Assembly: GCA_016124955.1 (NCBI GenBank)
Contig: WGMR01000004.1
Location: 57,491 to 121,490 of the forward strand
DNA: 64,000 nt
From: Alphaproteobacteria bacterium
GTDB taxonomy: Bacteria; Pseudomonadota; Alphaproteobacteria; UBA9219; RFNS01
Direction of reading: 5' to 3'
A program made the translations under genes and the position numbers. Each line of letters begins with the position of its first letter. Position 1 is the stretch's first letter. Under the pieces are notes generated by a model, which saw only the letters and a list, made by a program, of their open reading frames with translations, was not told where the DNA came from and ran no database searches. This document shows positions 5,081 through 62,452 of this stretch, piece after piece.

Positions 5081-5242
5081 TGTAAATACTCCTTAACAGT
5101 CTGAAGCGCGGTTTATAGGGTCGCCCCGGCACAGAGTCAACAAAAGGCGGGTTAACGGGCCCGGCGCAGGCCCGGAAACTTGACAAACCTGCCTAAAAAG
5201 GCAGTTTTAGCGCTCGTTTTTTGCAAAAACAGGTCATTAACA

Positions 5243-13857: not shown

Positions 13858-14217
13858 TTACGGCCGCCAGGCGTCCTGCACATGCACCGGCCAAGCCCAG
13901 GGCGCGACGGCCATCACATCAAAACGCACGGTCTTGCCTGTATGTTCGCGCTTGCCGGCAAGGAAATGCTGCGCCGCACGCGCCAAACGTATCCGCTGCT
14001 GCATGCTGACGGCGGCCAGCGCTTCGGTCGTGGTGCGGCGCGCCTTGACCTCGATCACGGCAACGATACCGCCGCGCGCGGCCACAATATCAATTTCGCC
14101 TGCCGGGGTGCGCAGCCGCGCGGCCAGAATGCTGTAGCCGCGCAGCAATAAAACAAGCTGGCACATTTTCTCGGCGAATTTTCCGGTGTGGTAGCGGGCC
14201 CTGCGCTCTTCGTTCAT
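13858..14217 (-). CDS. yraN: YraN-family (UPF0102) endonuclease-like protein
   Basis: ...GEIDIVAARGGIVAVIEVKAR... restriction-endonuclease-like fold motif. Its start overlaps the rsmI stop (ATGA). Confidence 0.8.
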   Translation of the reverse strand: MNEERRARYHTGKFAEKMCQLVLLLRGYSILAARLRTPAGEIDIVAARGGIVAVIEVKARRTTTEALAAVSMQQRIRLARAAQHFLAGKREHTGKTVRFDVMAVAPWAWPVHVQDAWRP

Positions 14218-15158
14218 GTCCGCGCGCGGCGCTTGCCGTCCGCGGCGGCCGCGCCGCCCGTAAGCGCCAGCGCCCTGCTGTAAATTGCGCGGCGCTTGCC
14301 GCCGATGGCGGCGGCGACCAGCGCGGCGGCGTCGCGCACGGAATTGCTTTCCAGCGCATCCTTCAGCATCGCATCGATATCCGCCTCTTCCGGCTTTTTG
14401 GGCCCGGGCGGGCCGACGACGATCACCGCCTCGCCCTTCGGCGCTTCCGCTTTGGCATAACGGACGGCAAGGTCGGTCAACGTGCCGCGCTGCACGTCTT
14501 CGAACATCTTGGTCATCTCGCGCGCCACGGCGGCATGGCGCGGCGCCAATGCGCGGTCAAGCGCGGCCAGCGTGGCCGCAAGCCGCGTGGGCGCTTCATA
14601 TATCACCAATGTTGCGGGCACATCCTTCAGCTCGGCAATGGCGATATCGCGCGCGCGCGTCTTGGTCGGCAAAAACCCCGCGAATAAAAATCTGTCGGGA
14701 GGAAGCCCGGAAAGCTGCAGCGCGGTCAGCGCGGCCGAAGCGCCGGGCAGCGCGGTGACGGGGATGTTGTGATCGATGCAATCACGCACCAGCTTATAAC
14801 CCGGGTCCGAGACAAGCGGCGTGCCCGCATCGCTGACAAGCGCAATCGTATCGCCCGCACGCAAACGATTGACGAGCACAAGCCGCTGCCGGTCCGCATT
14901 ATGGTCGTGATAGGGCGTAAGATGGGCGCGTATGCCGTAGCGCGCGAGCAGCGCGCCGGTGGTGCGCGTGTCTTCGCAAGCCACGCAGCCCGCGGTGGAA
15001 AGCAGCGCGAGCGCGCGCAGCGTAATGTCGCCGCTATGACCGATCGGCATGGCGACAAGATAGAGGCCGGGGGCAAAATCTTGCGCGGCGGGCGGTTTAC
15101 TTCCCGCGTCCGTCCCGCTAGCTTTGTGCGCAACCTTTTCGCCCGCACCCTGCCGCAT
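14214..15158 (-). CDS. rsmI: 16S rRNA (cytidine1402-2'-O)-methyltransferase
   Basis: GLYLVAMPIGHSGDITLRALALL...CEDTR... tetrapyrrole-methylase fold. Several in-frame ATGs exist (15158, 15221, 15260, 15296); 15158 was chosen. Confidence 0.75.
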   Translation of the reverse strand: MRQGAGEKVAHKASGTDAGSKPPAAQDFAPGLYLVAMPIGHSGDITLRALALLSTAGCVACEDTRTTGALLARYGIRAHLTPYHDHNADRQRLVLVNRLRAGDTIALVSDAGTPLVSDPGYKLVRDCIDHNIPVTALPGASAALTALQLSGLPPDRFLFAGFLPTKTRARDIAIAELKDVPATLVIYEAPTRLAATLAALDRALAPRHAAVAREMTKMFEDVQRGTLTDLAVRYAKAEAPKGEAVIVVGPPGPKKPEEADIDAMLKDALESNSVRDAAALVAAAIGGKRRAIYSRALALTGGAAAADGKRRART

Positions 15159-15199
15159 CGCGGCAAGGGCCGTTCGGGCAATTTCGGAGTAATCTTGCG

Positions 15200-16546
15200 A
15201 TGCGCGTTTCGCCTTTGTCATGTCTGCGCCTGGTTCCGGCTTTCGGGCTCGTTCTGGCATGCCTTGTTGCCTGCGGCGGCACTGTACCCGGTTCAAGGCA
15301 ACAGACGCAAATCATACCCCCCGCCTGGCCGCAGGGCGGGAAGGAACCCCCGCCTTATTACGGCGAACGCATGCAGCCCCCCGCCCGGCTGGACCGGCAG
15401 GCGCTGCCGCGCAATATCGGCCAGCCTTATACGGGTCCGGCGGGCGCCGCGCAGCCGGGCAAGCAGGTTTATAACCTTTCCGGGCAGGACAGGCACGGCC
15501 CTTCCATGGGCGGCACAAGCCCGGCGGTGCAAACCGCGCCGGCGACGCGCGTCGCGCTTTTGCTGCCGCTTTCCGGCGCGCAGGCAAAGCTGGGCATGGC
15601 GTTGCAAAACGCGGCGCAGCTCGCGGTGTTCGACAATGCCGGCAACGATTTCGAATTGATGCCGCGCGACACGGGCGATACGCCCGAAGGCGCGCAACTG
15701 GCGCTGCGCGATGCGCTGGCGAGCGGCGCGAAGCTGATCATCGGCCCGCTGTTTTCTTCCTCGGTCTCCGCGATCAAGCCGCTGGCGCAAAGCGCGAATG
15801 TGCCGGTGCTGGCGCTATCGAACGATACCGCGATGGCGGGCGAAAATATCTACATCACCGGCTTTTCCCCCGCGGCGCAGGTTGAACGCATCATCGGGTT
15901 CGCGCAAACGCAGGGCGTGAAGCGTATCGCGGCGCTGGTGCCGCGCGGCGGGTATGGCGATGTCGTGCAAGGCGCGCTTGCCGGCGCCGCCGCGCGCAGC
16001 GGCGCGAAGATCGTGCGCATCGAACAATATGATCCGGCGGCAATGGTGATGGGCGCACAGCTCGACACTATCGCAAAGTCGCAAGGCGGGATCGACGGCA
16101 TCCTGATTGCCGAAGGCGGCGACAGGTTGCGCAGCATCGCCACGCAATTGGCGGCGCGCGGCATCGATCTTTCCCGCATCCATCTTCTCGGCACCGGTTT
16201 GTGGGATGAAGCGGATGTCGGGCGCGGCGCGCCCGCGCTGGCGGGCGGCTGGTTCGCCGCGCCGGACAACGGGCGGCTGGGCAGCTTCATCGCCAGTTAC
16301 GAGGAAACCTTCGGGCAAAAGCCGCCGCGCATCGCCTCGCTGGCCTATGACGCGGCCGCCATGGCGGTCACGCTGAGCCGCCGCGCGGGCAGCCTGACCC
16401 CGGCGGCGCTTTCCGGCATGCGCACCTTCGAAGGTATTGACGGCCCCATCCGCCTGACGGCGGCGGGCCGGGTCGAACGCAGCCTCGCGGTCTATCAGGT
16501 TACGCCCGAAGGCATCGCCCGGACGGACGAAGCGCCGGGGTTGTAA
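15200..16546 (+). CDS. LpoA-like penicillin-binding-protein activator / periplasmic-binding-protein-fold lipoprotein
   Basis: Lipobox signal peptide (LVAC). VALLLPLSGAQAKLGMALQNAAQLAV...IGPLFSSSV PBP-type-1 fold. Divergent from rsmI-yraN, the same neighbourhood as E. coli yraL|yraM(lpoA)-yraN. Confidence 0.6.
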   Translation: MRVSPLSCLRLVPAFGLVLACLVACGGTVPGSRQQTQIIPPAWPQGGKEPPPYYGERMQPPARLDRQALPRNIGQPYTGPAGAAQPGKQVYNLSGQDRHGPSMGGTSPAVQTAPATRVALLLPLSGAQAKLGMALQNAAQLAVFDNAGNDFELMPRDTGDTPEGAQLALRDALASGAKLIIGPLFSSSVSAIKPLAQSANVPVLALSNDTAMAGENIYITGFSPAAQVERIIGFAQTQGVKRIAALVPRGGYGDVVQGALAGAAARSGAKIVRIEQYDPAAMVMGAQLDTIAKSQGGIDGILIAEGGDRLRSIATQLAARGIDLSRIHLLGTGLWDEADVGRGAPALAGGWFAAPDNGRLGSFIASYEETFGQKPPRIASLAYDAAAMAVTLSRRAGSLTPAALSGMRTFEGIDGPIRLTAAGRVERSLAVYQVTPEGIARTDEAPGL

Positions 16547-16874
16547 AACGGCGCAGTCGCGGTTTCGGGCGGCGAACGCATGTGAGCGCCCGCAGAACAG
16601 TCGCGCAAAAACAAATACCTAAAATTTGATCTATCGCGTTTTTTTCCGCGCCGGCGGATTTATCGTTTCGAAATCCCCTCAAATTGCTTGCAAGTAAAGA
16701 CGGCCCCTCTGGGCAGGCCGTGATGCAAGTAAAACGGGGCCTGAAAACAGGGGGTTTTGGGGGTGCCGAATTAGTTGCGAACAATTTGAGTTAAATTGTT
16801 AATTTATCAATTGTATCAATGACTTAGCTGCGAAAATTCAGGTCCTGTTAACCGCGCCCGCTTAACCTGAACCT

Positions 16875-17969
16875 ATGAGCAGCACGCATGAAAAAGAACG
16901 CAAATTGGGCCTGATCCGGGTAAGGGGCGTAAACGGCCATGCCGATTTCGTCCGCTACACCAACGACAAACGCTCTTTCACCCAGGACCTGCTGACCGAG
17001 CTGCGCAACAACCCGGCCCGCAAGAACGAACTCGATATCCGCAGCCTCGATCTTTCCGGCGCGGATCTCAGCAAGATGGATCTCAGCGGCCTGAACCTCG
17101 CGGGCATGAACCTCAAGGGCGCGAACCTCAAGGGCGCGAACCTGACCAACACCAACCTGCGCGGCGCGAACCTCGAAGGCTGCAACCTCGAAGGCGCGAA
17201 CTTCTCGGGCGCGAACCTGCAGAACGCAAAGCTGGCCGGTTCCAAGATCGGCGGCGCGGTGTTCGACCGCACCGATGCGCGCGGCGCGGATTTCACCAAG
17301 GTGCGCGGTGCCGCCCTGTTCAACGGCGGCTTTGCCGGTGCCTGCTTCGCCGGCGCGCAGATCGCGGGCTCCAACCTTCGCGACAGCAACTTCGACAACG
17401 CGCAGATGCGCGGCGTGGACCTGACCAACGCCACCGGCGACAACGTGAAATTCACCAATGCCAAGATGCAGGGCGCCAGCCTGAACAACGCGGCGCTGGA
17501 TAATGCCAACTTTTCGGGCGCTGATCTGCAGGGCGCTGATCTGCGCTACGCCGGCCTGCGCCATGCTTCGTTCGCCAGCGCGAACCTTTCGGGCGCACTG
17601 GTCAACGGCAGCACCGATCTGGGCAAGGCCGATCTGAGCTACGCCGCCACCGCCGGCACCAACATCACCGTCGCCAACATTGCCGGCGCCGAGCTGCGCG
17701 GCATGAAGTTCGGTAACCGGAACATGACCGACCGCGCCGAAAGCACCCTGATCGCAGGCAACGCGGCGCTGGAAACCGATTACAAGGGCGGCAACGACAG
17801 CTGCCGTCCGGTGATGTCCTTCAAGGCGGGTGACCGCTACGCCTCGCTCAAGGCGGCCCCCGGCCCGTCACTGACCGTGCGCAAGCCGGGCACGGAACTG
17901 GAAATGCCGGTGCGCCCGGCCGCGGCCTTCAAGCACGCGTTCCCGACCCCCTCGCCGATGGCGGCGTAA
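16875..17969 (+). CDS. pentapeptide-repeat protein
   Basis: More than 30 tandem A(D/N)LxG-type pentapeptides (GANLKGANLTNTNLRGANLEGCNLEGANFSGANL...). Confidence 0.8.
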   Translation: MSSTHEKERKLGLIRVRGVNGHADFVRYTNDKRSFTQDLLTELRNNPARKNELDIRSLDLSGADLSKMDLSGLNLAGMNLKGANLKGANLTNTNLRGANLEGCNLEGANFSGANLQNAKLAGSKIGGAVFDRTDARGADFTKVRGAALFNGGFAGACFAGAQIAGSNLRDSNFDNAQMRGVDLTNATGDNVKFTNAKMQGASLNNAALDNANFSGADLQGADLRYAGLRHASFASANLSGALVNGSTDLGKADLSYAATAGTNITVANIAGAELRGMKFGNRNMTDRAESTLIAGNAALETDYKGGNDSCRPVMSFKAGDRYASLKAAPGPSLTVRKPGTELEMPVRPAAAFKHAFPTPSPMAA

Positions 17970-17997
17970 TCGCCCGGAAAACAAGGGTTTCCAGGTT

Positions 17998-19164
17998 CTA
18001 GGCGGTTTCGTCCGCCAGCAAATACCCAAGCACGCCGTTCAATCTTTGCAGCCCCGCAGGCGTGGCGCGCAGCGCCGTATCATCCAGCGCAATCAACCCT
18101 TCTTCCGCAAGCTTCGTGATTTTCCGTGCCGGCAGCGTATCCGCAATATCGCCGCCGAACTTTGCGCGCCAATGCGCCCGGGCTATGCCGGTGCGCAGCC
18201 GCAGCCCCATCATCAGCGCTTCGCGCTGCGCCGTTGCGCTGCCTATGCCGTCGCAAAGACGCTGCCCGTGCCCGTCCCGCTCCACCTGCCCAAGCCACAC
18301 TTCTGGCATGCGGTGGTTTTCGGTGGCAAAGCGCGCGCCGTCCGCGCCCGCATAGCGCCCGTGCGCCCCGGCGCCGATACCGATGTAATCATTATAATGC
18401 CAGTAAGCCAGATTATGACGCGAAGCATCGCCCGCGCGCGCATGGTTTGAGATTTCGTATGCGGGCAACCCGGCCGCTTCCATAATTTCCTGCGTCAGCT
18501 CATACATCGTGCCCGCTTCTTCGGTTTCCGCCGCCAGCTTCTCGCCGCGCCCTGCGCGGGTCGCGAACTGCGTGCCGGGCTCTATCGTCAACTGGTAAAG
18601 CGAAAGATGCCCGCGTGCCATAACAAGCGCGTCCGCCAATTCGGCGCGCCATGCGGCTTGCGTCTGCCCGGCGCGGGCATAGATAAGATCGAAGGAAAAA
18701 CGCGGGAATATTTTGGCCGCCAGCGCAACCGCGGCACGCGCTTCGGCGGCGCTGTGCCCGCGCCCCAATGCCATAAGCGCGGCATCATCAAGCGCCTGCA
18801 CGCCAAGCGAAACGCGCCCCACCCCGGCCGTGCGCAAATCGCGGAACTTCCCGGCTTCGACCGATGTCGGGTTGGCTTCCAGGGTAATTTCGATATCGTC
18901 CGCCGCGCGCCAGTACTGCGTAGCGGCATCCACCAGCGCGGCGACATGGGCCGGGTCCATCAGCGAAGGCGTGCCGCCGCCGAAAAAAATGGATGCAAGC
19001 GTGCGCCCGGGCAAAAGCGCGGCATAGTGCCCAAGTTCGCGCAGCAGCGCGGCGGCGACGCCGTCTGCGGGGGCATTGTCCCGCACATGGCTGTTGAAAT
19101 CGCAATAGGGGCATTTGCTGAGGCAAAAGGGCCAGTGGATATAAAGCGCGAGCGTATCGCTCAT
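17998..19164 (-). CDS. hemW: radical-SAM haem chaperone HemW (HemN-like)
   Basis: LYIHWPFCLSKCPYCDFNS CxxxCxxC motif. Its start overlaps the rdgB stop by 4 nt. Confidence 0.85.
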   Translation of the reverse strand: MSDTLALYIHWPFCLSKCPYCDFNSHVRDNAPADGVAAALLRELGHYAALLPGRTLASIFFGGGTPSLMDPAHVAALVDAATQYWRAADDIEITLEANPTSVEAGKFRDLRTAGVGRVSLGVQALDDAALMALGRGHSAAEARAAVALAAKIFPRFSFDLIYARAGQTQAAWRAELADALVMARGHLSLYQLTIEPGTQFATRAGRGEKLAAETEEAGTMYELTQEIMEAAGLPAYEISNHARAGDASRHNLAYWHYNDYIGIGAGAHGRYAGADGARFATENHRMPEVWLGQVERDGHGQRLCDGIGSATAQREALMMGLRLRTGIARAHWRAKFGGDIADTLPARKITKLAEEGLIALDDTALRATPAGLQRLNGVLGYLLADETA

Positions 19165-19757
19165 TCCCAGAAACAGCGTTCGATAAGTTTCCGGAATGCC
19201 TGCGCGCGGTGGCTGATGCGCTGCTTTTTCAGCGGGCTCATTTCCGCAAAGGTGCGGTTGCTGCCCGCCGGCACAAAGAACGGATCGTATCCAAACCCGG
19301 CATCGCCGCGCGGCGGCCACACAATGGCGCCATCGATACGCCCGACGACGGTTTCGCAATGCCCGTCCGGCCAGGCCAGCGCCAGCGCGCAAATAAAGCA
19401 TGCGCTGCGGTCCGGCGCGTCGGCCATGCGTTCGTGGACATGCTGCATGGCGGCTTCGAAATCCTTTTCGCCTGCGGCATTTTTTGGCGCCCAGCGGGCC
19501 GAGCGAATGCCGGGTTCGCCGCCCAGCGCGGTGACGCTCAGGCCGCTATCGTCCGCAAGCGCAATTTCGTTCGCCGTCTGCGCGGCGGTGCGGGCCTTGA
19601 TCATGGCGTTGGCGGAAAAGCTGTCGCCCGATTCTTCCGGCTCGTCCAGCCCAAGTTCGCCCGCGCTGACGATCGCGAGCCGGTGCGGTTCGCTCACGCG
19701 GCCGCCGAGAAAGCCGCGGATCTCGACAAGCTTGTCATGGTTGTGCGTAGCCGCCAC
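19161..19757 (-). CDS. rdgB: non-canonical purine NTP pyrophosphatase (RdgB/Ham1)
   Basis: (M)AATHNHDKLVEIRGFL...FSANAMIKA...PRGDAGFGYDPFF. GTG start at 19757 chosen for its RdgB-like length; an alternative GTG at 19826 overlaps the rph stop (GTGA). Confidence 0.8.
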   Translation of the reverse strand: MAATHNHDKLVEIRGFLGGRVSEPHRLAIVSAGELGLDEPEESGDSFSANAMIKARTAAQTANEIALADDSGLSVTALGGEPGIRSARWAPKNAAGEKDFEAAMQHVHERMADAPDRSACFICALALAWPDGHCETVVGRIDGAIVWPPRGDAGFGYDPFFVPAGSNRTFAEMSPLKKQRISHRAQAFRKLIERCFWE

Positions 19758-19822
19758 AAGCCGCGGCGCATCGAAGCGGCGGCCGCGATAGCGCGCGGCG
19801 TTCGGCGCGGCCGCAAGCACGC

Positions 19823-20536
19823 TCACGCCAGGGCTTCCTGCTGCTTGGCGCGCAAAATCGCGGTGCCTTCGCGCGCAAGCTTCATCAGCTGCTGGAACTG
19901 TTCTTCGGAAAACGGCTTCTGTTCGGCGGTGCCCTGCACCTCCACGATTCCGCCGCTGCCCGTAAGCACGAAGTTCGCATCCGCCTGCGCGTTGCTGTCT
20001 TCCGCGTAATCGAGATCGAGCACGGCGGCATTGTTGTAAAGGCCGCACGAAATCGCGGCGACGCTGTCGGTCAGCGGCGGTTTCTTCAGCCGACCGATGC
20101 GCACCAGATGCTTGCAAGCGAGCGCAAGCGCGACATAGCCGCCGGTAATCGCGGCGGTGCGCGTACCGCCGTCGGCCTGCAGCACATCGCAATCGATCTT
20201 GATCTGCATTTCGCCGAGCGCGGCGCGGTCGGTCACCGCGCGCAGCGCGCGCCCGATCAGCCGCTGGATTTCCTGCGTTCGTCCGCTTTGTTTGCCTTTT
20301 GCCGCTTCGCGCTCGGTGCGCTCCGATGTGGCGCGCGGCAGCATGCCGTATTCCGCCGTCACCCAGCCAAGACCGGTGCCGCGCAGCCAGGATGGCGTGC
20401 GCTCATCGATGCTGGCGGTACACAATACATGTGTATCGCCGCATTTGATCAGACACGATCCTTCGGCATATTTCGCGGCATTGATATCGAGCTGGATGGC
20501 GCGCAGCTCGCCTACGGTTCTTCCGGATGGACGCAT
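19823..20536 (-). CDS. rph: ribonuclease PH
   Basis: [19 protein letters not shown]...[11 protein letters not shown]...[13 protein letters not shown]...; AAGGAA RBS upstream. Confidence 0.9.
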
Positions 20537-20785
20537 TATGGTTTCCTTAAGTTTAATTAAGCGGACGATAACGGTTTGCTTGTGTAATGGCAAAAGCAAT
20601 GGCCGGAAATGAGTCGGTTCGATTTCGAAACAATATGCCTTAAATGAAAGGTAAAATTAACCAAGACTGTTTCGGAAGCGTATATTTTGCCATATTCATC
20701 AACTAGTTACCCAATTAATCCCTTGTTAAGAGATTTGCTGTCAAATTGATAATGTAGCGACATAAACCGGGCAGAGGTGGGGACC

Positions 20786-20968
20786 ATGCCAATTGTAAAT
20801 GTAGATGGAAACAGGTTGTCGGAAAGGGATCTGAGCGCCCTTGGCGCTGTTGAACAGGTTTCCTTCACTATGCGTCACCCTGACGGCCCTTTGCTTCGCT
20901 GGAAATATATGAACCAGGAAGAAACCTTGAAGAAATTGATCGACGAAGAATTTTGGGTGGAGGAATAA
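20786..20968 (+). CDS. small acidic hypothetical protein (60 aa) in an AT-rich island
   Basis: ATG with GAGGTG 9 nt upstream. Its stop overlaps the RBS of the next gene. Confidence 0.4.
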   Translation: MPIVNVDGNRLSERDLSALGAVEQVSFTMRHPDGPLLRWKYMNQEETLKKLIDEEFWVEE

Positions 20969-20971
20969 CAC

Positions 20972-21250
20972 ATGTCTTGGGCACCAACCGCTCGTATGGC
21001 AACCAAAGCCGGGCTTGTTCCTTGGAGACTTACTCAAACGGCATCGTCTGCTGTGGGTAGTGGCTTTGAATCGATAGGCTCTCTTCTGAAAGGCAAGCCC
21101 ATTACTGCCGTAAAGCAATTTGCAGGCGGCTTGGGCAAACTGTTCAGCGGTGTAGGCCGGGTGCTGCAGGGCACATCCCTTACACCAGGCAGAAATGCCA
21201 CGAATTCATTGCGTGACAGAAATCCAAAACTTCAGCCTGGAAGCGCATAG
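20972..21250 (+). CDS. small basic Gly/Lys-rich hypothetical protein (92 aa)
   Basis: ATG 3 nt after the previous stop, with GGAGGA RBS (translational coupling). FAGGLGKLFSGVG Gly-zipper-like segment. Confidence 0.4.
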   Translation: MSWAPTARMATKAGLVPWRLTQTASSAVGSGFESIGSLLKGKPITAVKQFAGGLGKLFSGVGRVLQGTSLTPGRNATNSLRDRNPKLQPGSA

Positions 21251-21276
21251 TTTCCAGAAATAGTGTGCAAATCAAA

Positions 21277-21310
21277 ACACGCGGGCCTCTCTCCCCCGCG
21301 TGTTTTTTTC
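21277..21310 (+). terminator. rho-independent terminator
   Basis: ACACGCGGG-cctctctcc-CCCGCGTGT followed by TTTTTTT. Confidence 0.6.
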
Positions 21311-21344
21311 AGAAACAGAAAATTTTTCTGCTAAGGAAATAAAA

Positions 21345-21515
21345 ATGGCTCTTCCGGCGATCGCAGCAAAAGCCGCCATGTTTGCGGTAAAGCACCCGAA
21401 AGTTACCGCGGCTGTGCTCAAATTCGCGGGCAAATCCATAGCAAAGCGAATGGGTGGCAGCGCCACAAAACCCGCTGCCAGATTCGGCGCCCGCGGCCCT
21501 AAATTTACATCGTAA
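21345..21515 (+). CDS. small Lys/Ala-rich amphipathic hypothetical protein (56 aa)
   Basis: Strong RBS (AAGGAAATAAAAATG). KHPKVTAAVLKFAGKSIAK resembles KGKPITAVKQFAGGLGK of the preceding 92-aa protein. Confidence 0.45.
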   Translation: MALPAIAAKAAMFAVKHPKVTAAVLKFAGKSIAKRMGGSATKPAARFGARGPKFTS

Positions 21516-21527
21516 TAGCCTAAGAAT

Positions 21528-21890
21528 TTATTTGGCCAGCATCGGCCCCAAAGGTTTCCCGGCAAGTATGTGAATGTGGAAGTGCGGCACTTCCTGGTGC
21601 GCGTTGGCCCCGTGGTTGGCGATCAGGCGGTAACCGCCCGGCACAGCGCCGGCATCGCGCGCCATCTTGCCGACCGCGCGCCAAAAACCTTCGATCTCCT
21701 CCGCGCTGGCGGACGCGCTGAAATCGTCCAGCGAAACATAGGATCCCTTCGGTATCACAAGTATGTGCGTGGGCGCTTGCGGGTTGATATCGGGGAACGC
21801 GAGCGCGAAACCGTCTTCGAACAGTTTCTTGCACGGTATCTCGCCGCGCAGTATTTTCGCGAACACATTGTTGCTGTCGTAGGCCATCAC
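21528..21890 (-). CDS. HIT-family (histidine triad) protein
   Basis: ...APTHILVIPK... and HxHxHxx (VPHFHIHIL) histidine-triad motif. Confidence 0.8.
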   Translation of the reverse strand: MMAYDSNNVFAKILRGEIPCKKLFEDGFALAFPDINPQAPTHILVIPKGSYVSLDDFSASASAEEIEGFWRAVGKMARDAGAVPGGYRLIANHGANAHQEVPHFHIHILAGKPLGPMLAK

Positions 21891-21902
21891 GCCCTCCGTC
21901 CG

Positions 21903-22625
21903 TTATTTGGTTTTTGCGAGCGCTTCCTTGGGGTCGATGCGACCGTCATACAAGGCGCGGCCGATGATTGCGCCCGCAATGCCGGCCTTTTCCTGTTTCT
22001 TCAGCTCTTCAAGGTCGTTCAGGCTGGCGACGCCCCCGGAAGCGATCACGGGCGTCGTGAGCGCGAAAGCAAGATCGACCGTGGCTTCAACATTCACGCC
22101 GCCCAAAGCGCCGTCGCGATCAATGTCGGTATAGATAATGGCGGAAACGCCGGCATCTTCGAAGCGCAGCGCGAGATCAAGCGCTTTCATCGCCGTATCT
22201 TCCGCCCAGCCTGAAACCGCCACGGTGCCGCTACGCGCATCGATCGCCACCGCGATCTTGCCCGGAAACTGGGCGCAGGCCTCTTTCACCAATTCCGGGT
22301 GACGCGCGGCGACGGTACCGAGCACGACGCGCGAAACGCCTTTTTGCAGCCAAGCTTCGATCAGCGCGATGTTACGAATGCCGCCGCCGAGCTGGACCGG
22401 GATCTTGACGTCGGCCAGAACCTCGTCCACCGCATCGCCGTTCACCGGCTTGCCCGCAAAGGCGCCGTTCAGGTCAACGATATGCAGCCATTCGAAGCCC
22501 TGCGCCGCGAACGCCCTGGCCTGCGCCGCCGGGTTGTTGCCGAATACGGTCGCTTGCTCCATGTCGCCATGCACGAGCCGTACGACATTGCCGTCCTTGA
22601 TATCGATCGAAGGGTACAGGATCAT
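21903..22625 (-). CDS. hisA: 1-(5-phosphoribosyl)-5-[(5-phosphoribosylamino)methylideneamino]imidazole-4-carboxamide isomerase
   Basis: [12 protein letters not shown]...VQLGGGIR...VIASGGV; HisA/HisF TIM-barrel signature. Confidence 0.9.
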
Positions 22626-22720
22626 GGCGGCTTTTATAGCGGGTTTAGCGGGCTTGGCAAAGCCGGGCTTGTAATTTTCTTGCTCCGTTCCTATCTATGC
22701 AGGGCAACAAGGGAAGCCGC

Positions 22721-23287
22721 ATGTTCGACCATAACGACCCGTCCAAATGGTATGGCACTACCATCATTGCCATCCGCAAGGGTGGCACAGCCGTGATCGC
22801 GGGCGACGGGCAGGTTTCAATGGGACAAACCGTGATGAAAGCCAATGCCCGCAAGGTGCGGCGGCTGAAATCTGGTTCCGGCGGCAATGATGTGATCGCG
22901 GGCTTTGCCGGCGCCACGGCCGACGCCTTCGCCCTGTTCGAGCGGCTTGAGGGCAAGCTCGAAAAGCATCCGGGCCAGCTTCTGCGCGCCTGCGTCGAAA
23001 TGGCCAAGGATTGGCGCACCGATCGCTACCTGCGCCGTCTTGAAGCCCTGATGGCGGTGGCAGACGGCGAAACATCGCTGATCATCACCGGCACCGGCGA
23101 TGTGCTGGAACCCGAAGACGGCATCATCGGCATCGGTTCGGGCGGGCCTTACGCGCTCGCGGCCGCCCGCGCGCTGATGGATAACGAAAAGCTGGATGCC
23201 GAAGCGATCGCGCGGCGCGCGCTTTCGATCGCCGCCGATATCTGCGTCTATACCAACAACAACATCACTTTGGAAAAAATCGCGTGA
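22721..23287 (+). CDS. hslV: ATP-dependent protease subunit HslV
   Basis: ...[11 protein letters not shown]...GDGQVS...GSGG; AAGGGAAG RBS 5 nt upstream of the ATG at 22721 (the ORF-track start 22697 lacks an RBS). Confidence 0.9.
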
Positions 23288-24609
23288 CCGAACTATCTCC
23301 GCGCGAAATCGTCATCGAACTTGATCGCCACATCATCGGCCAGCAGGACGCGAAGCGCGCCGTCGCCGTCGCGTTGCGCAACCGCTGGCGGCGCCAGCAA
23401 TTGCCCGAAGGCCTGCGCGAAGAGGTTTTGCCCAAAAACATCCTGATGATCGGGCCCACCGGCGTCGGCAAGACCGAGATTGCCCGCCGCCTCGCCAAGC
23501 TGGCGCAGGCGCCCTTTATCAAGGTCGAAGCCACCAAATTCACCGAAGTCGGCTATGTCGGGCGCGATGTCGAACAGATTGTGCGCGACCTGGTCGAGGT
23601 TTCCCTGAAGCTCACGCGCGAAAAAATGCGCGCGGAGGTCGAGGCGCGGGCCAAGGCCAACGCGGAAGAGCGCGTGGTCGATGCGCTTGTGGGCGGCAGC
23701 GCCGCGCCGGAAACGCGCCAGAAATTCCGCGATAAATTGCGCGCGGGCGAGCTGAACGACAAGGAAATCGAAATTACGGTCACCGATAATGCGGGCGGCA
23801 CGCTGCCCACCTTCGATGTGCCGGGCATGCCGGGCGCGCAGATGGGCATGCTCAACCTCAACGATATTTTCGGCAAGGCCATGGGCGGGCGCACGCGTGC
23901 GCGCAAATGCACGGTGGCCGAGGCGCATGATATCCTTATGGCCGAAGAGTCCGACAAATTGCTCGATACCGATGCGCTGGCGAGCGAAGCGATCCGGAAT
24001 GTCGAACAAAACGGCATCGTGTTCCTCGACGAGATTGATAAAATCGCGGCGCGCAGCGACCATGTGCGCGGCGGCGGCGATGTCAGCCGCGAGGGCGTGC
24101 AGCGCGATCTGCTGCCGCTGATCGAGGGCACCTCGGTCAGCACCAAATACGGTACAGTGCAAACCGATCATATCCTCTTCATCGCTTCGGGCGCGTTCCA
24201 TCTTGCCAAGCCATCCGATTTGCTGCCCGAATTGCAAGGCCGCCTGCCGATCCGGGTCGAGCTTGCCTCGCTTTCGCGCGACGATTTTCGCCGTATCCTG
24301 ACCGAGCCGGAAGCCAGCCTGATCACGCAATACAAGGCGCTTCTGGCGACCGAAGGCATAACGCTGACATTCGAGCCCGCCGCGATCGACGAGCTCGCCG
24401 GCCTTGCCGCCAATGTCAATCAGAGCGTCGAGAATATCGGCGCCCGGCGGCTGCATACGGTGCTTGAAAAGCTGCTCGAGGATATCAGTTTCGATGCCGG
24501 CGATCCGGCGAAGGGCGGCCCGAAATCCATCGCCATCACCGCGGGTGACGTAAAGGAAAAACTGGCGGCGCTGACGCAAAACGCCGACCTGTCGAAATTT
24601 ATTCTCTAG
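23284..24609 (+). CDS. hslU: ATP-dependent protease ATPase subunit HslU
   Basis: [30 protein letters not shown]...[15 protein letters not shown]...; GTG start overlapping the hslV stop. Confidence 0.9.
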
Positions 24610-24612
24610 CCG

Positions 24613-25236
24613 CTAAATAGCGAGATTGTTGGAAAGCGTGCCCCGGTTTAAATGCCATACCGGCGAAGGGCGCTTGAACTTGCGCGCAACCGCGATCAGC
24701 GGCAAACGCGAAGCCGCATAGGTGAAAGGCAGCCCGCGCGCGGGGTCGTCGGCCAGCGCCGGGTTTTTCGTGCGCCTCAATATCTCCCGCGCCGTCAAAA
24801 TCTCGACGCCGCTGATCTCGCCCTTCGTGTTGCGCAGCTGCGTATCGCGGTCGATGGCGGTCAGCGGTTTCGCGCGGCGCGTATATTCGCGCATCGAAAG
24901 CTTATAGACACAGGTGTGCTGGTGTACGTTGCGGTATTGCGGGTTATCGGGCTTGTAAAAGCTTTCGCCCAGAAGTTTCAGCTGTCTTGGATTGACATCC
25001 GGCAAGGCGGGCTTGCCGCGCGCATCCCTGACCTCTTCGCCCATTTCGCGCACGGCGGCGACGCGCATGTCGTTGTTGTCTTCGGGGTCCGCAAGGCCGC
25101 CGGGGTTGCCGTACCTGCCGTCCGCGTGCCGGATCAGCACGAAACGCGCCGATTTCCACATTATCCACGGCTTGTAATACAGGATGCAGGAAGATCCCTT
25201 GATCGCGCCTTCATATGTTTCGGATTCGACGAACAT
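24613..25236 (-). CDS. NUDIX-like hydrolase-domain protein (divergent)
   Basis: GNPGGLADPEDNNDMRVAAVREMGEEV approximates the Nudix box Gx5Ex7REUxEExGU; the remainder is unrecognised. Ends 4 nt after the hslU stop (convergent). Confidence 0.45.
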   Translation of the reverse strand: MFVESETYEGAIKGSSCILYYKPWIMWKSARFVLIRHADGRYGNPGGLADPEDNNDMRVAAVREMGEEVRDARGKPALPDVNPRQLKLLGESFYKPDNPQYRNVHQHTCVYKLSMREYTRRAKPLTAIDRDTQLRNTKGEISGVEILTAREILRRTKNPALADDPARGLPFTYAASRLPLIAVARKFKRPSPVWHLNRGTLSNNLAI

Positions 25237-25284
25237 GCCGGCACTATCCTTGGCATGGCCGCCGCTGGCAATTATTTTCTATGG

Positions 25285-25866
25285 TTAACGCGCCGCCGCA
25301 AGCCGCGCGCGGCGGGCCATGATCACGGCAACGAGCACGCTGTTGGCCGCAATCAGCGCGGCGGGGTACAGCGCGGTGGTGAGCGAATAGACGCTGATTG
25401 CGGCAATCGATGCGATATGTTTGGCGTTGCTGATCACGTAATGCAGCGCCATTTCCTCGCGCGGCCTTGCCCACGATTTGCGCAGTGTCGGCCCGTAGCC
25501 GAGCAGATCGACGGCAGTTACAAGCAGCACGGCAGCCAGCGGCTCGTCGGTCGCGGCCCAGAGCGGAATGGCGGCCAGCGCAGCCGCAAGAAAAGCCCAG
25601 TCGCTGCGCGTAATGTTTTTCTCGCCGCCGTACAGCGCCATCGCGGCAATGACGATGCAAAAACCCGCGCTACAGGCCGTGGCCCAGTATCCCGGCCCGG
25701 CCGCGCCCGCATATTGCGCGGCAGCGGCGATGCTCATCAAAAGGCTCCAGATCGCCCACGAAAAAACATGCGGGCGGTTGCTGCCGCGCCATGTCATCCA
25801 TACATAAGGCGCATAGGCCGCCACCGTGAGCAGCAGCGAAAGATAGCCGAAAAGGCCCTTATCCAT
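25285..25866 (-). CDS. hypothetical integral membrane protein (~6 TM)
   Basis: Hydrophobic segments throughout; start taken at MDKGLFGYLSLLL; overlaps the smr stop by 8 nt. Confidence 0.5.
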   Translation of the reverse strand: MDKGLFGYLSLLLTVAAYAPYVWMTWRGSNRPHVFSWAIWSLLMSIAAAAQYAGAAGPGYWATACSAGFCIVIAAMALYGGEKNITRSDWAFLAAALAAIPLWAATDEPLAAVLLVTAVDLLGYGPTLRKSWARPREEMALHYVISNAKHIASIAAISVYSLTTALYPAALIAANSVLVAVIMARRARLAAAR

Positions 25867-26407
25867 CGCGCCCCGCCCGTTTCTGCCCGCGGCGCAGCAC
25901 GACATAAAGCGCGCCGTTGCCGCCGTGACGCGGCGCGGCGGGTTCGGCGCCGATAACCGATTGCATGAATTCCGGCGCGCGCAGCCAGCGCGGCACGTCC
26001 GCGCGCAAAACGCCGCTCTTGCCCGTAATCACAAGCACGCAGCGCATAGCGCCGCGCCGGGCGATGGCGATAAAATGTTTCAAGGCTTCATAGGCTTCCG
26101 GGCGCGTCATGCCGTGCAGATCGATGCGCGCTTCAAGCGGCACGCGCCCGACCCGTAATTTTTTAACGATGTTGCGGTCAAGCTGCCAGCCGCGATCGTC
26201 CGCCGTCACGGCAATATGCACGCGCGGCACGTTCTTGTGCTGGAAACTGTCCGGATCGGGCACGATGGCCGGGCCGGCGCCTTGCCGGCGCGGGGCGGGC
26301 CGGGGCTTCTTTGCCGTTTCCGTTTTTTTGCGCGCGTCCGCGCCGCGCTTCAACGGCTTGATGCCGCGCGCGTATTCCCGCCAGAACCGTTCGTCTTTTT
26401 CATCCAT
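25859..26407 (-). CDS. Smr-domain protein
   Basis: C-terminal Smr domain (LDLHGMTRPEAYEALKHFIAIARRGAMRCVLVITGKS), with the disordered basic N-terminus typical of alphaproteobacterial Smr proteins adjacent to mltA. Confidence 0.7.
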   Translation of the reverse strand: MDEKDERFWREYARGIKPLKRGADARKKTETAKKPRPAPRRQGAGPAIVPDPDSFQHKNVPRVHIAVTADDRGWQLDRNIVKKLRVGRVPLEARIDLHGMTRPEAYEALKHFIAIARRGAMRCVLVITGKSGVLRADVPRWLRAPEFMQSVIGAEPAAPRHGGNGALYVVLRRGQKRAGRDG

Positions 26408-26583
26408 GCAGCCAACCACGAATTCTCTACGACTCGCCCCATATTCAATATGCGGTACAATGCTTTATAAAAGCACGGTTTTTGTGCCGTATAGTTAACG
26501 TCTGCGTTTGTTTTTTAGTTTCTTCGCTCCATGATACGATTAAAATGAAGCCCATATAACAACAGCTTTTAAAGAGGCAAAAA

Positions 26584-27114
26584 ATGAGCCGGAGCAACAT
26601 TGCCAAAGGCAAAATCATATCGGCAGACGTTATCGATGCCGTCGCTTTTTCTGCAAGCGGCCCCACCCATGTTACCGCTTATTCCACGGTCAAGCCCGGC
26701 ACGGATGGCGCGGTGAAAATGGTCGCGATCGAGCTAAGCAAGCGCACACCCGGGCGCGCCGTACTTGCTGCAAGCCTCGGCATAGCCGCCTTAGCTGCAT
26801 TCTCTATCGGCTTCTGGGCGCTCATTCCGGCAGCACTTGGTGTCGGCGCTTCCATCCTTACGGAAAGGCTTTCGCGCGAAAAAATCCTGCTTAGCCAGAA
26901 GGCGGTTGATGGTCTGATACAAAAAGAATATCCGGATCTCACGGAAGCGCATCCGGATCATGTCCCCTTAACTGTCGCCAGAAGGCTTGTCGGCAATCGC
27001 GTCACGCTCGAAACCTCCGCCCCCAATGATACGTCGGAAAATGGCGGCGTATGGGAAAATTTCGGCAGCAAGCTTGGCTATCGCCGTGTCGCCGCTAGTT
27101 TGAAATTCGGCTAA
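26584..27114 (+). CDS. hypothetical protein with one central TM segment
   Basis: ORF after an AT-rich 150 bp upstream region, RBS AAAGAGG. No family recognised. Confidence 0.4.
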   Translation: MSRSNIAKGKIISADVIDAVAFSASGPTHVTAYSTVKPGTDGAVKMVAIELSKRTPGRAVLAASLGIAALAAFSIGFWALIPAALGVGASILTERLSREKILLSQKAVDGLIQKEYPDLTEAHPDHVPLTVARRLVGNRVTLETSAPNDTSENGGVWENFGSKLGYRRVAASLKFG

Positions 27115-28289
27115 CGCGCCGCGTTCTTCGGCACCAGCATCCAATAACCGCCGCGGCTTTGCATGACGCCCGCCATTTCCTCGGCGCGCGCGCCATGGCC
27201 CCAGAACAAATCGCCGCGCACGGGCCCCTTGATCGCGCCGCCCGTATCTTGCGCTATCACCAGCCTTTGAATGCGCATGCCCGGCCCTTCAGGGCTTTCG
27301 ATATCGAGCCAGAGCGGCGTGCCGTAGGCGATGAAGTGACGATCGACCGCCGCGCTGCGCAGCGGCGTCAATACGACGCCCTGCGCGCCCACCGCGCCTT
27401 CGGCTTCGCGTTCTTCGAAAAACACATAAGATTCGTTTTTGTTCATCACGCTCTGCGCGGTCTGCGGGTTGGCGGAAAGCCAGGCGCGGATTTTCTGCAT
27501 CGTGATTTTTTCGTCTTCCGCGAACAGCCCGTCATCGCGCATCGCGCGGCCGACCGCGGTATAAGGGTGCCCGTTCTGGATCGCATAGCCGGCATGCATG
27601 ACCGTGCCGTCATCGAGTTCGATACGGCCTGAACCCTGTATTTCAAGGAAAAAGGCGCCGACCGGGTCATCCACCCATGCCAGCGCGCGCGCCGGCACGC
27701 CCAAGGCCGCAATCTCCGCCCGCTTGGCATAGGGCACGAATATCTTGCCTTTCGCATCCTGCTGCACGCGGCCCGTAACGCGCTGCCCCGCAAGGCTATC
27801 GAGGAACAAGCCAAGATCGGCGGTCACAAGATCGTCCGGGCGGGCGTAAAGCGGGTATTGATAAGGCCCGCCGCGCATGCGCGCGCCGCGCAGCGAAGGT
27901 TCGTAATACCCCGTGAAAAGCCCGTCCGCATCGCCGTTGCTGGTGGCACGCATGGGCGTGAAATAGGTTTCAAAATACGCGCGCGCGGCTTCGCCGTCAC
28001 CCGCCGGCACAGCTTCAAGCGCCGCGCAGGGCACGAGCCAATCGGCAACTTTCCCGGCTGCGCCGAAATCCTGCGCCGGATCCTTGCGCGCAACCAGCGC
28101 GCATGATTTTTGCAAGGGTTCAAGCGCTTCCGCCGTATTATCAGCGCGCCAGCCGGGCAATTGCGCGAAGCTTGCGGGTTGTAAAATCAATGCTTCGGGC
28201 TGCGGGCCTTTCGGCACCTGCGCGCAAGCGGCCACAAACAAAAGCGCCGCAAGGGCAATATGGCGCGGCGATGCAGGGGATGGTCGCAC
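27111..28289 (-). CDS. mltA: membrane-bound lytic murein transglycosylase A
   Basis: Lipobox FVAAC; MltA 3D-domain motifs (FFLEIQGSGRI..., GAIKG...DLFWG). Confidence 0.85.
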   Translation of the reverse strand: MRPSPASPRHIALAALLFVAACAQVPKGPQPEALILQPASFAQLPGWRADNTAEALEPLQKSCALVARKDPAQDFGAAGKVADWLVPCAALEAVPAGDGEAARAYFETYFTPMRATSNGDADGLFTGYYEPSLRGARMRGGPYQYPLYARPDDLVTADLGLFLDSLAGQRVTGRVQQDAKGKIFVPYAKRAEIAALGVPARALAWVDDPVGAFFLEIQGSGRIELDDGTVMHAGYAIQNGHPYTAVGRAMRDDGLFAEDEKITMQKIRAWLSANPQTAQSVMNKNESYVFFEEREAEGAVGAQGVVLTPLRSAAVDRHFIAYGTPLWLDIESPEGPGMRIQRLVIAQDTGGAIKGPVRGDLFWGHGARAEEMAGVMQSRGGYWMLVPKNAAR

Positions 28290-28298
28290 TTGTATGCT

Positions 28299-29012
28299 CT
28301 ATGAACGGGTTTCAACCAAAAGCCAGTTCGGATCGCCCGATTTCACATCGCGCGCGAAAGTCCAGCTATCTTCGACTTCCTCGGCCTTGCCGGGCAGGCC
28401 CGCCACAACATTACCTGCGGCGTCGCGCGTTACATTGATCTGGTCGCTCACATATTTCACGGTCAGAAGCGCGCGCGTGCCTTCAAGCTTCGCGCGCGCG
28501 AGATCGGCGTCGCGAATGTTCTTGATCTCGGTTTCCTGTCTTTCGCCCGCCTTCTGGCGTTCCTGCACCGCCTGTTCGAACTGCGCGAAAACGCGCGAGG
28601 AAAGCAGCGGCTTCAAAACCTTCAGCTCGCCCGCCGCAAAGGCGGAAACGATCATGCCGAAAGCGCTGCGCGCGCCCGCAAGAAAAGCCTTTTCGTCAAA
28701 CGAAGGATCGGCGGCGGTGATGGCCTCGATCCCGCCGATAAGGCTTTCGGGCGCGGCCTTGAAAGCGGGCAGCGCGCGCGGCCGGTCGAACTTTTCGGAG
28801 CGAATTACGTTTTCCTCGTCATCGCCCAAATTGCCGTCCCGCGCGCCGTCATCCTTTTCGGCTTTCTTATCCTTGCCTGCGCCGCGCGAAGGGGCAGAAA
28901 ACGGGTTCGGGCGCTGCTCCTCGCCGTCATTGCGGCGGCCAAGGATCGCGCGCAACTTGAATATGAGCACGGCCGCAACAAGGGCAAAGACAATGATATC
29001 GAGATAAGCCAT
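28299..29012 (-). CDS. Tim44-like domain protein
   Basis: N-terminal TM (MAYLDIIVFALVAAVLIF), acidic linker and C-terminal Tim44-like domain. Divergent from secB as in many alphaproteobacteria. Confidence 0.75.
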   Translation of the reverse strand: MAYLDIIVFALVAAVLIFKLRAILGRRNDGEEQRPNPFSAPSRGAGKDKKAEKDDGARDGNLGDDEENVIRSEKFDRPRALPAFKAAPESLIGGIEAITAADPSFDEKAFLAGARSAFGMIVSAFAAGELKVLKPLLSSRVFAQFEQAVQERQKAGERQETEIKNIRDADLARAKLEGTRALLTVKYVSDQINVTRDAAGNVVAGLPGKAEEVEDSWTFARDVKSGDPNWLLVETRS

Positions 29013-29215
29013 GACACCCTGAGATCTTGCGCGCCGCATGGGCCGGGAAGCGGGATACGCCTGATTAATGCGCCAGCGGCGCGGCTTTTTCAAGAGGGCA
29101 GCGCGCATACGCGTGCGCGGCGCGGCAAAGCGGCGGCCATTAAAGAGGTTGCCGCTGCGCAAGCACCATGTTACCCCCTGCTTATCGAAGCCGGAAGCAG
29201 GATAGGAGCCACGCC

Positions 29216-29692
29216 ATGAACGATACGCCCGCAGGCGCAGCAGGCAGCAACGTGCCGCAACAAATGACGGTCAACGCCCAGTATATGAAGGATTTTTCCT
29301 TCGAAAGCCCGTCCGCGCCGCGCATCTTCGGCGAACAGCCGAACGCCGAGCCGCGCGTGGAGGTGAACGTGAACGTCACCTCGCAGCCGCTGGCGGAAAA
29401 TGTCTATGAAGTGGCGCTGCGCCTGAAGACGGAATCGAAAATCGGGGATAAAACCGCGTTCATTTGCGATCTTACCTATGCATGCATCGCCACCATGCCG
29501 GCGATGGCGGAGCCTCAGCTGCGCGCGGCTTTGATGGTCGAATGCCCGCGGCTGCTGTTCCCGTTCGCGCGCGCGATCATTGCCGACGCGGTACGCGAAG
29601 GCGGGTTTCCGCCCTTGATGCTGGCGCCGGTCGATTTTGCCGGCATGCTGCGGCAAAACGAGGCGCAGGCAAGAAGCGCGGCCAACGCGTAG
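29216..29692 (+). CDS. secB: protein-export chaperone SecB
   Basis: QQMTVNAQYMKDFSFESPSAPRIF... matches the SecB N-terminus; GGAG RBS. Confidence 0.85.
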   Translation: MNDTPAGAAGSNVPQQMTVNAQYMKDFSFESPSAPRIFGEQPNAEPRVEVNVNVTSQPLAENVYEVALRLKTESKIGDKTAFICDLTYACIATMPAMAEPQLRAALMVECPRLLFPFARAIIADAVREGGFPPLMLAPVDFAGMLRQNEAQARSAANA

Positions 29693-29719
29693 CATATAAG
29701 CGCGACGATCACCGCCGCC

Positions 29720-29815
29720 TCAGGCCAGCACGGCGCCGGCGACAAGGCACAGCGCAAGGGTGCAAACAACAAACAATACGGGCACATGCGCGGACGCGCG
29801 TTTCACGCTTTCCAT
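29720..29815 (-). CDS. possible small hydrophobic peptide (31 aa)
   Basis: MESVKRASAHVPVLFVVCTLALCLVAGAVLA with GGAG 6 nt upstream. Unverified sORF. Confidence 0.2.
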   Translation of the reverse strand: MESVKRASAHVPVLFVVCTLALCLVAGAVLA

Positions 29816-29974
29816 CGTTATCTCCATCAAACAGACGGGCTATGCAAGTTTCCGGTGCGGGGCGGAACAATGACCCCGCGTTTCATCAAGCTATAAAACG
29901 GTTATAGCGCATTTGTGCTAAAATTTTCTGAGTTTTTGGTTACCGGAATCTTACTTTGTCTTTTTTTCCGGTTG

Positions 29975-30382
29975 CTATCGCGGGGAGCCGAAACGCAAAT
30001 CCACCGTGCTCGGCGCTTTTTGCAAATAGATTTTATAACGGAAGGAAACGCCGGGCTCCATCGGATCAAGCACGTCGTTCAAAATAATGCGGTTGCCGTG
30101 CTGGCTGTAGGTCAGCTCGCGCCCGCGCTCGAGATCGAGCTGCGGCAGCAAGTCGTGGTGGCGGTTGCTGTAGGCGGCGCGCGTACCGTTGCCGCCGTCC
30201 ATCATGGTCGATGCACTCGGCCCGCTTTTGAAATCGGGCACGACCTTGGGGTCGATCCAGGCATAGGGTTTTTCGGGGCCGGTGCTGTCGGTCCAGGCTT
30301 GGGCGGCGGGCGCGAACAGCAGAAACGCAAAAAATAACAAAAGGGAGACGGCCGCGGCGGGCGCCGCAAGCTTTTCATGCAT
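29975..30382 (-). CDS. secreted hypothetical protein (signal peptide ...LLFAPAAQA)
   Basis: ORF with a cleavable signal peptide. Several possible starts (30382, 30406, 30433). No family recognised. Confidence 0.45.
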   Translation of the reverse strand: MHEKLAAPAAAVSLLLFFAFLLFAPAAQAWTDSTGPEKPYAWIDPKVVPDFKSGPSASTMMDGGNGTRAAYSNRHHDLLPQLDLERGRELTYSQHGNRIILNDVLDPMEPGVSFRYKIYLQKAPSTVDLRFGSPR

Positions 30383-62447: not shown

Positions 62448-62452
62448 CGGGA

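Follow-up and report, generated by a model that had tools for sequence, protein, structure and literature searches.

A candidate cassette of small orphan genes between rph and a HIT gene in an alphaproteobacterial metagenome-assembled genome

Introduction

Type II toxin-antitoxin systems, such as Phd/Doc, YefM/YoeB and RelBE, consist of two small, adjacent, co-oriented genes that belong to one operon, are separated by a junction of a few nucleotides and are translationally coupled. The products of these genes fall into known families, with recognisable DNA-binding or antitoxin domains (RHH, HTH, AbrB, Phd/YefM) among the antitoxins and superfamilies including RelE/ParE, MazF, PIN, Doc, HipA and GNAT among the toxins. 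Two-peptide (class IIb) bacteriocins, for example lactococcin G and plantaricin EF, are encoded in loci that also carry an immunity gene. A third class is formed by orphan bacterial small open reading frames (ORFs), which are short, have a GC content under that of the host genome, lack homologs and are inconsistently called by gene finders. Here, we analyze a locus that shares features with all of these, namely, an AT-rich island of 990-991 nt located between rph and a HIT gene in a 64,000-nt stretch of DNA (hereafter, the window) from a metagenome-assembled alphaproteobacterium (assembly GCA_016124955.1, contig WGMR01000004.1, positions 57,491 to 121,490). The island contains three small ORFs on the same strand, denoted P1, P2 and P3.

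In a preliminary description, this island was presented as a compact cassette of small genes encoding an acidic protein and two basic partners, a picture that is retained here inasmuch as the ORFs are accompanied by real-looking expression signals. We tentatively interpret the island as a genuine, lineage-restricted small-gene cassette that comprises a P1-P2 bicistron and a less certain P3, an explanation that we prefer although we place it somewhat below an even chance. The cassette, or at least its P1-P2 part, is probably real, an orphan known from a single metagenome-assembled genome.

Results and Discussion

Architecture and coding evidence

P1 and P2 form a compact pair with nearly the complete set of signals noted in the preliminary description, that is, the acidic protein preceded by GAGGTG, the coupled basic protein preceded by GGAGGA, and the rho-independent terminator (Table 1). 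The ATG of P2 lies 3 nt after the stop codon of P1 and in the same reading frame (GAA TAA CAC ATG, window 20966-20974). Among all starts tested in the window, the Shine-Dalgarno (SD) site of P2 ranks second in strength, the HIT start being at -10.0 kcal/mol. Among the background ATG/GTG/TTG codons of the window, 1.7% reach -8 kcal/mol or better and 17% reach -5 kcal/mol or better. The antisense ORFs of the island (125, 97, 55 and 53 amino acids (aa)) have no SD site (+0.3 to -3.9 kcal/mol), the other-frame ORFs of the island lack one as well, and neither group matches any family or attains a positive codon score. The terminator hairpin (stem-loop 21274-21306) begins 24 nt past the P2 stop codon and has a 12-bp stem, complementary in 12 of 12 positions, a run of seven T and a folding energy of -19 kcal/mol (z=-2.9). 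The consensus scanner missed this hairpin because the loop length of 9 nt exceeds the limit of 8 set in the scanner.

Upstream of P1, a candidate sigma-70-like promoter is located that agrees with the consensus only as a sequence match, from which we infer transcription. The promoter initially proposed, TTGTTA (20723-20728) paired with the same GATAAT box, had to be replaced because its spacing of 19 nt is too wide; the scanner instead selects TTAAGA with a 16-nt spacer. Three of the 6 promoter-like sites found in the region 14000-30000 cluster at the left end of the island. A promoter-like site for the divergent rph gene marks the left part of the island as a control region common to both directions. 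The two copies of a 14-nt direct repeat, AATTGATAATGTAG and AATTGTAAATGTAG (20744-20757 and 20791-20804), agree in 12 of 14 positions and enclose the putative -10 box together with the first codons of P1; this placement is operator-like, and the repeat itself is at about the chance level by our estimate.

Table 1. Positions (window coordinates) and properties of the ORFs and predicted signals in the island
Feature	Position	Strand	Properties
P1	20786-20968	+	60 aa, acidic, pI 4.7, net charge -5
P2	20972-21250	+	92 aa, basic, Gly/Ala/Ser/Thr-rich, pI 12, net charge +9.5
P3	21345-21515	+	56 aa, basic, Ala/Lys-rich, pI 12, net charge +10.6
Sigma-70-like promoter candidate	20726..20753	+	TTAAGA-16-GATAAT, 9/12 consensus positions, ~30 nt upstream of P1 start
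P1 Shine-Dalgarno site	20774..20779	+	GAGGTG, 6 nt before ATG, -8.0 kcal/mol against anti-SD
P2 Shine-Dalgarno site	20959..20964	+	GGAGGA, within last P1 codons, 7 nt before P2 ATG, -9.3 kcal/mol
P3 Shine-Dalgarno site	21333-21338	+	AAGGAA, 6 nt before ATG, -5.1 kcal/mol, ordinary value
Intrinsic terminator hairpin	21274..21309		AAAACACGCGGG / 9-nt loop / CCCGCGTGTTTT then TTT
Promoter-like site for divergent rph	20565..20593	-	TTGCCA-17-TATCGT
Perfect palindrome	21316..21330		CAGAAAA-T-TTTTCTG (7+1+7), between terminator and P3 SD site, also seen as hairpin

The full architecture is more than expected by chance. Among 3000 shuffles, none contained two neighboring ORFs that each had an SD site of -8 kcal/mol or stronger, and a single one contained three non-overlapping SD-preceded ORFs on one strand. 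ORF length alone is not significant.

Codon usage was evaluated with a model built from 22 confident genes of the window, in which ORFs are scored per codon relative to the best-scoring non-coding frame. The value for P1, +0.145, is close to that of HIT (+0.136) and lies within the range of real genes, and the GC content of P1 at the three codon positions (0.55/0.32/0.53) follows the normal ordering. Spurious wrong-frame ORFs of real genes average -0.56, and none of them reaches 0. P2 and P3 score far above such spurious ORFs; codon-position periodicity is significant for P3 (p=0.003) and borderline for P2 (p=0.06). A crude codon-based gene finder accepts P1 only. The NCBI pipeline (PGAP) independently called P1, which is deposited in GenBank as hypothetical protein GC131_02690 (MBI1272977.1), on a contig of 129,704 nt. 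From the combined evidence, P1 is likely to be a real gene, and the balance tips slightly towards the same conclusion for P2. P3, the least certain of the three, is a doubtful gene that we would rather not count on.

The locus was also recovered by an independent assembly of run SRR10063240, which is 100% identical across 4034 bp, so that the island is not a misassembly. This assembly, the sole other one of the locus, comes from the same sample. The run is a metagenome of a 34.5 °C thermal spring in New Zealand, according to a published comparison (PMC7692377).

Search for relatives

As the preliminary description had it, none of the three proteins matches a known family: comparison with Pfam, NCBIfam, PHROGs and PADLOC yielded nothing above threshold, and comparison with PDB by sequence gave nothing meaningful. 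In a word-indexed search of 5.8 billion clustered proteins, P1 and P3 matched only themselves, and P2 had no match, its own sequence being absent too because it was never called as a gene; ORFs of this kind may systematically escape protein databases. Six-frame searches of phage and plasmid collections retrieved nothing with E<0.5. An exhaustive phmmer (HMMER) search, performed for P1 only and against 1.84 billion representatives, returned P1 itself and seven matches at E<=1e-3 (P0004-P0010). These matches were rejected as homologs; they are long repetitive proteins of unrelated families (DUF11, Secretin_N, PPR/TPR and a junk repeat), and they are spurious because their scores sum several weak repeat stretches. 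Comparison of a 60-aa query with long tandem-repeat proteins is a methodological trap in its own right, given that E-values down to 1e-9 arise in this manner without homology.

The neighborhoods of the HIT gene were compared in 92 loci, comprising the 80 most similar HIT loci of GTDB species representatives and 12 metagenome loci, among the matches listed. Within this set, the GTDB loci share at most 74% HIT identity with the locus studied here, and P1, P2 and P3 are encoded in none of the 80 GTDB loci and in none of the 12 metagenome loci; a close relative could lie outside the matches listed. The co-occurrence of the trio in other genomes, which had been suggested as a check of the cassette, was thus not found in these loci. 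Several apparent matches were discarded. A P1-like match in L084, the closest metagenome relative among the matches listed, lies inside the glutathione synthetase gene and is therefore due to chance. Weak matches to P1 (E 0.085-1.7) recur in several of the GTDB loci at a distance of about 3-4 kb from HIT; they all come from the same conserved neighbor gene and are not independent. A P2 match on an IMG/VR viral contig, in a tape-measure-like protein, derives from an exact 8-mer seed and is at the chance level for the whole collection. The contig in question encodes, at 3804-5540, a Gly/Ala-rich, tape-measure-looking protein of 578 aa, followed by large tail-fibre-like ORFs; this protein contains LKGKLTGAVKQFAGG, which is close to LLKGKPITAVKQFAGG of P2.

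Protein properties and a possible mechanism

Modelling with AlphaFold, one of the checks originally proposed, produced models of P1 and P2, but these are of low confidence and match no known fold. The single-sequence AlphaFold2 model of P1 has the topology alpha-beta-beta-alpha (predicted local distance difference test score (pLDDT) of 63), and the AlphaFold2 model of P2 is a helical hairpin (H17-39, H44-65; pLDDT 61). Within P2, residues 47-67 are made up of three heptads of the form xxx[F/L/V]xxG. A hydrophobic membrane-spanning segment is absent from all three proteins; the highest 19-residue Kyte-Doolittle means of the two basic peptides are 0.78 and 0.92. The amphipathic moments of these peptides, 0.60 and 0.57, are marginally above those of shuffled sequence (p=0.03 and p=0.05, respectively). 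For the P1-P2 pair, the complementary charges of the two proteins and the amphipathic helix of P2 (muH 0.60) are in line with the preferred explanation.

Small-xxx-small motifs are present in both P2 and P3. The two peptides had been described as paralogous, a relationship that is not recovered by sequence comparison: BLASTP does not align them at E<=100, the top Smith-Waterman alignment (KPITAVKQFAG with KVTAAVLKFAG) has a score of 25 where shuffled sequence averages 25.6 (p=0.53), and the short repeats that their genes share at the DNA level do not occur in collinear order. Judging by these comparisons, P2 and P3 are not demonstrably related.

If the preferred explanation is correct, the sigma-70-like promoter would drive a bicistronic P1-P2 mRNA of ~550 nt that ends at the intrinsic terminator, and translation of P2 would be coupled to that of P1 through the strong SD site that the final P1 codons contain. 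P1 would be a small acidic alpha/beta protein and P2 a strongly basic, glycine-heptad helical protein, and the two, made together, might assemble into a complex in the cytoplasm, with P1 masking or chaperoning P2. The idea of a complex follows from the combination of coupling and opposite charges (-5 and +9.5), by analogy with other gene pairs, and we consider it rather unlikely in its own right. As a possible third member, P3 would be a small basic protein whose expression, if it occurs, depends on read-through of the terminator.

Comparison with described systems

Taken from the sequence, the gene arrangement of P1-P2, a small, adjacent, co-oriented pair in what appears to be one operon, is that of a type II toxin-antitoxin system. 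In common with such systems, P1-P2 has the few-nucleotide junction and the translational coupling, an acidic upstream product and a larger basic downstream product, a single promoter-like site with a single terminator, and a location in an AT-rich, patchily distributed island. The products themselves differ from those of type II systems. P1 lacks a recognisable DNA-binding or antitoxin domain, and P2 belongs to no known toxin superfamily: it has no family match, no homolog and no sequence match to solved structures, and its Gly/Ser/Thr-rich composition and predicted helical-hairpin structure set it apart from the known globular toxins. Foldseek matches of the models to YefM and Phd have E-values of 2.3-3.2 and are meaningless. 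The locus resembles a toxin-antitoxin pair in form only. The layout matches that of a type II toxin-antitoxin or of a chaperone-client pair, and the proposal that P1-P2 works like one of these, which is not a classification, is offered with considerable reservation. A toxic or other activity of P2 acting alone is a markedly weaker prospect. Still more speculatively, P1-P2 might be the first member of a new type of two-component small-protein system, in which the basic glycine-heptad hairpin P2 is checked by the co-translated acidic alpha/beta protein P1, with P3 as an accessory basic peptide; such a system would work in a toxin-antitoxin-like or effector-immunity-like manner with folds unrelated to known families, and we regard this entire scenario as very unlikely.

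The three heptads of P2 are reminiscent of the glycine-heptad (xxxLxxG) segments of phage tape-measure proteins and of YhgE/Pip-type proteins (TIGR03057), and the top non-significant phage matches of P2 are mostly to tape-measure or other tail and virion proteins. Unlike the members of TIGR03057, P2 stays under the family cut-off of 18.6 bits, with a score of 13.2 bits (E=0.084), and in contrast to tape-measure proteins, its phage matches in tblastn have E-values of 4-10 and no other phage genes flank the island. On this evidence, the likeness looks like shared composition, not homology. P2 also remains below the cut-off for the PorACj channel-forming small proteins (NF038022), with 13.5 bits against 28 (E=0.053).

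The locus is similar to orphan bacterial small ORFs in the short length of its ORFs, GC content below that of the host genome, lack of homologs, inconsistent gene calls, and location in an intergenic gap at a synteny breakpoint. It differs from typical orphans in that the expression signals are unusually complete, with a promoter-like site, two very strong SD sites, coupling and a terminator, and in that the codon usage of P1 is host-adapted. If expressed, the cassette would be one more taxonomically restricted small-protein operon, of a class that is poorly handled by gene finders, as illustrated by the two pipelines that each called a different single ORF of the three. It would also provide a clean acidic/basic pair with which to probe whether toxin-antitoxin-like architecture predicts function without homology. 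Being known from a single metagenome-assembled genome, the locus is of practical value only as a flagged candidate.

Composition and genomic context

The island extends from the start codon of rph (20536, minus strand) to the stop codon of HIT (21528, minus strand). The sharp drop in GC content between these genes, already noted in the preliminary description, is evident from the value of 47.4% for the whole island compared with 61-69% in the flanks; local values inside the island range from 0.39 to 0.55. The suggestion of foreign origin that had been attached to this drop is not sustained. The other noncoding gaps of the window have a GC content of 44-53%, so that low GC alone is no proof of such an origin. 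No flanking att-like direct repeats were found around the island, apart from chance-level short matches, and there are no tRNA genes in the window. The island has no match to plasmids in blastn, and P1-P3 have none to PHROGs. The hallmarks of an integrated mobile element or genomic islet for which we looked are therefore absent. Comparison of the island with Rfam gave only sub-threshold noise (rncO, 23 bits against 43; 5.8S rRNA, 20 bits against 42).

The ORFs read in the surrounding region, about 18000-24600, encode hemN, rdgB, rph, HIT, hisA, hslV and hslU, all of them housekeeping genes. Among the matches listed, hisA adjoins HIT in 55 of the 80 related genomes, and a distance of at most 10 kb between rph and HIT is seen in just 6 of these 80 GTDB loci. 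In L084, gshB directly follows HIT and there is no island. The rarity of the rph-HIT adjacency (window 19823-22625), together with the layout of L084, places the island at a lineage-specific junction of two conserved gene blocks, rph-rdgB-hemN and his-hslVU-HIT, where it marks a breakpoint of synteny particular to this lineage.

Alternative explanations

Several results weigh against a genuine cassette. The cassette was found in no second genome, whether in the 80 GTDB and 12 metagenome loci listed, in viral contigs, in phage and plasmid collections or in protein databases, so that there is no evidence of conservation. Neither P1 nor P2 is tied by Pfam or PADLOC to a known toxin or antitoxin fold. 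ORF length is at the chance level: of the dinucleotide shuffles of the island, 30% contain an ATG-initiated ORF of at least 92 codons and 9.6% contain, on a single strand, three ORFs of 56 codons or more. The coding scores of P2 and P3, -0.109 and -0.113 per codon, are negative, a result shown by only 2.5% of the 60-codon pieces of real genes, and the P2/P3 region has a GC content of 0.52-0.53, the same as ordinary noncoding gaps of the window. The pipelines disagree: of the three ORFs, PGAP called P1 alone, as MBI1272978.1, the accession that follows, belongs to HIT; the Logan pipeline called P3 alone; and P2 is missing from both annotations. The consensus scan detected neither a promoter-like site for P3 nor a terminator between this ORF and the stop codon of the converging HIT gene at 21528. 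With the negative scores set against the large distance from spurious ORFs, the coding statistics of P2 and P3 lie in a grey zone and are ambiguous.

The part of the cassette that is most readily given up is P3, located past the hairpin and ahead of the HIT stop codon. Upstream of the hairpin stem, opposite the T-run, lies an A-run, and on the minus strand the stem is followed by UUUUGAUUU; the hairpin could thus also end the converging HIT transcript, 217 nt after the HIT stop codon, and is, as far as such signals can be read, probably a bidirectional terminator. If the hairpin is shared by P1-P2 and HIT, the segment 21310-21527 would be the 3' untranslated region of HIT and P3 would not be a gene. 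No other terminator-like structure follows the HIT stop codon, which agrees with this possibility, as do the missing promoter and terminator of P3 and the absence of a PGAP call. The SD site of P3 had been described as strong; the ORF and its AAGGAA motif are indeed present, but the predicted strength is an ordinary one, reached by 17% of the background starts. The significant codon-position periodicity of P3, the call by the Logan gene caller and the rarity, in shuffles, of three SD-preceded ORFs on one strand all argue the other way, and we take the non-genic nature of P3 to be a serious possibility, though not the likelier outcome. The perfect palindrome in front of the P3 SD site could be an operator, a second small hairpin, or a chance occurrence in AT-rich DNA.

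The main rival to the cassette as a whole is that the island is an AT-rich spacer left where a rearrangement took place in this lineage; its ORFs would then be proto-genes or junk, either young or decaying, perhaps transcribed and translated, and without selected function. The lack of homologs in all searches, the rare rph-HIT adjacency and the island-free layout of L084, the non-host codon statistics of P2 and P3, the gap-like GC content and the chance-level ORF lengths would all be expected of such a spacer. What this explanation does not readily accommodate is the combination of two very strong, well-spaced SD sites, a 3-nt junction and a terminator just past the P2 stop codon, which was never reproduced in 3000 shuffles, and the host-adapted codon usage of P1, which argues for sustained translation under selection. 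We consider the proto-gene explanation unlikely, if clearly worth keeping in view, and continue to prefer a genuine cassette.

Another explanation, which we deem quite improbable, posits that P1 and P2 are the halves of one ancestral protein of ~154 aa interrupted by an in-frame TAA, constituting a pseudogene or possibly a read-through gene. The two ORFs do share a frame and are separated only by TAA CAC, and under this explanation the long open frame past the stop codon would need no separate account. A shared frame has, however, a 1-in-3 chance by itself, and the optimal GGAGGA-7 nt-ATG start (-9.3 kcal/mol) is located exactly at the junction. Furthermore, the halves differ in codon statistics (GC3 of 0.53 for P1 and 0.45 for P2; scores of +0.145 and -0.109), and searches with either half recovered no homolog of a fused form.

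The membrane-active, bacteriocin-like role suggested in the preliminary description, with P2 and P3 as secreted cationic peptides and P1 as an immunity or chaperone protein, is scarcely credible: although the two strongly cationic peptides with small-xxx-small motifs and marginally amphipathic segments, encoded alongside a third small protein that is acidic, are reminiscent of class IIb loci, and although P2 has the weak sub-threshold match to PorACj, every testable defining feature is lacking, given that the peptides are not demonstrably related and are separated by a terminator, that they have no hydrophobic span and no leader of the double-glycine or Sec type (the N-termini, MSWAPTARMATKAG and MALPAIAAKAAMFAVKH, contain neither a leader ending in GG nor a continuous hydrophobic core), that P1 is soluble and has no membrane segment, unlike the typical, membrane-bound immunity proteins, that the host is an alphaproteobacterium and the locus lies amid housekeeping genes, and that, as originally noted, there is no exporter, the ORFs read including no C39-peptidase ABC transporter and no gene for an accessory protein, a peptidase or a modification function.

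Other low-GC gaps in the window

Apart from the island, the window contains further low-GC noncoding gaps, at 37217-37606 (390 nt, 44% GC) and 16547-16874 (328 nt, 49% GC), which shows that intergenic DNA in this genome is generally 10-20 GC points below coding DNA. A second long low-GC gap, at 61616-62452 (837 nt, 44% GC), contains an ORF of 195 aa on the plus strand (61715-62302; MAYEYSAENHNWDL...). This ORF belongs to no Pfam family, the top match being Ferritin-like with E=0.13, and it may represent another orphan or foreign gene of the same genome.

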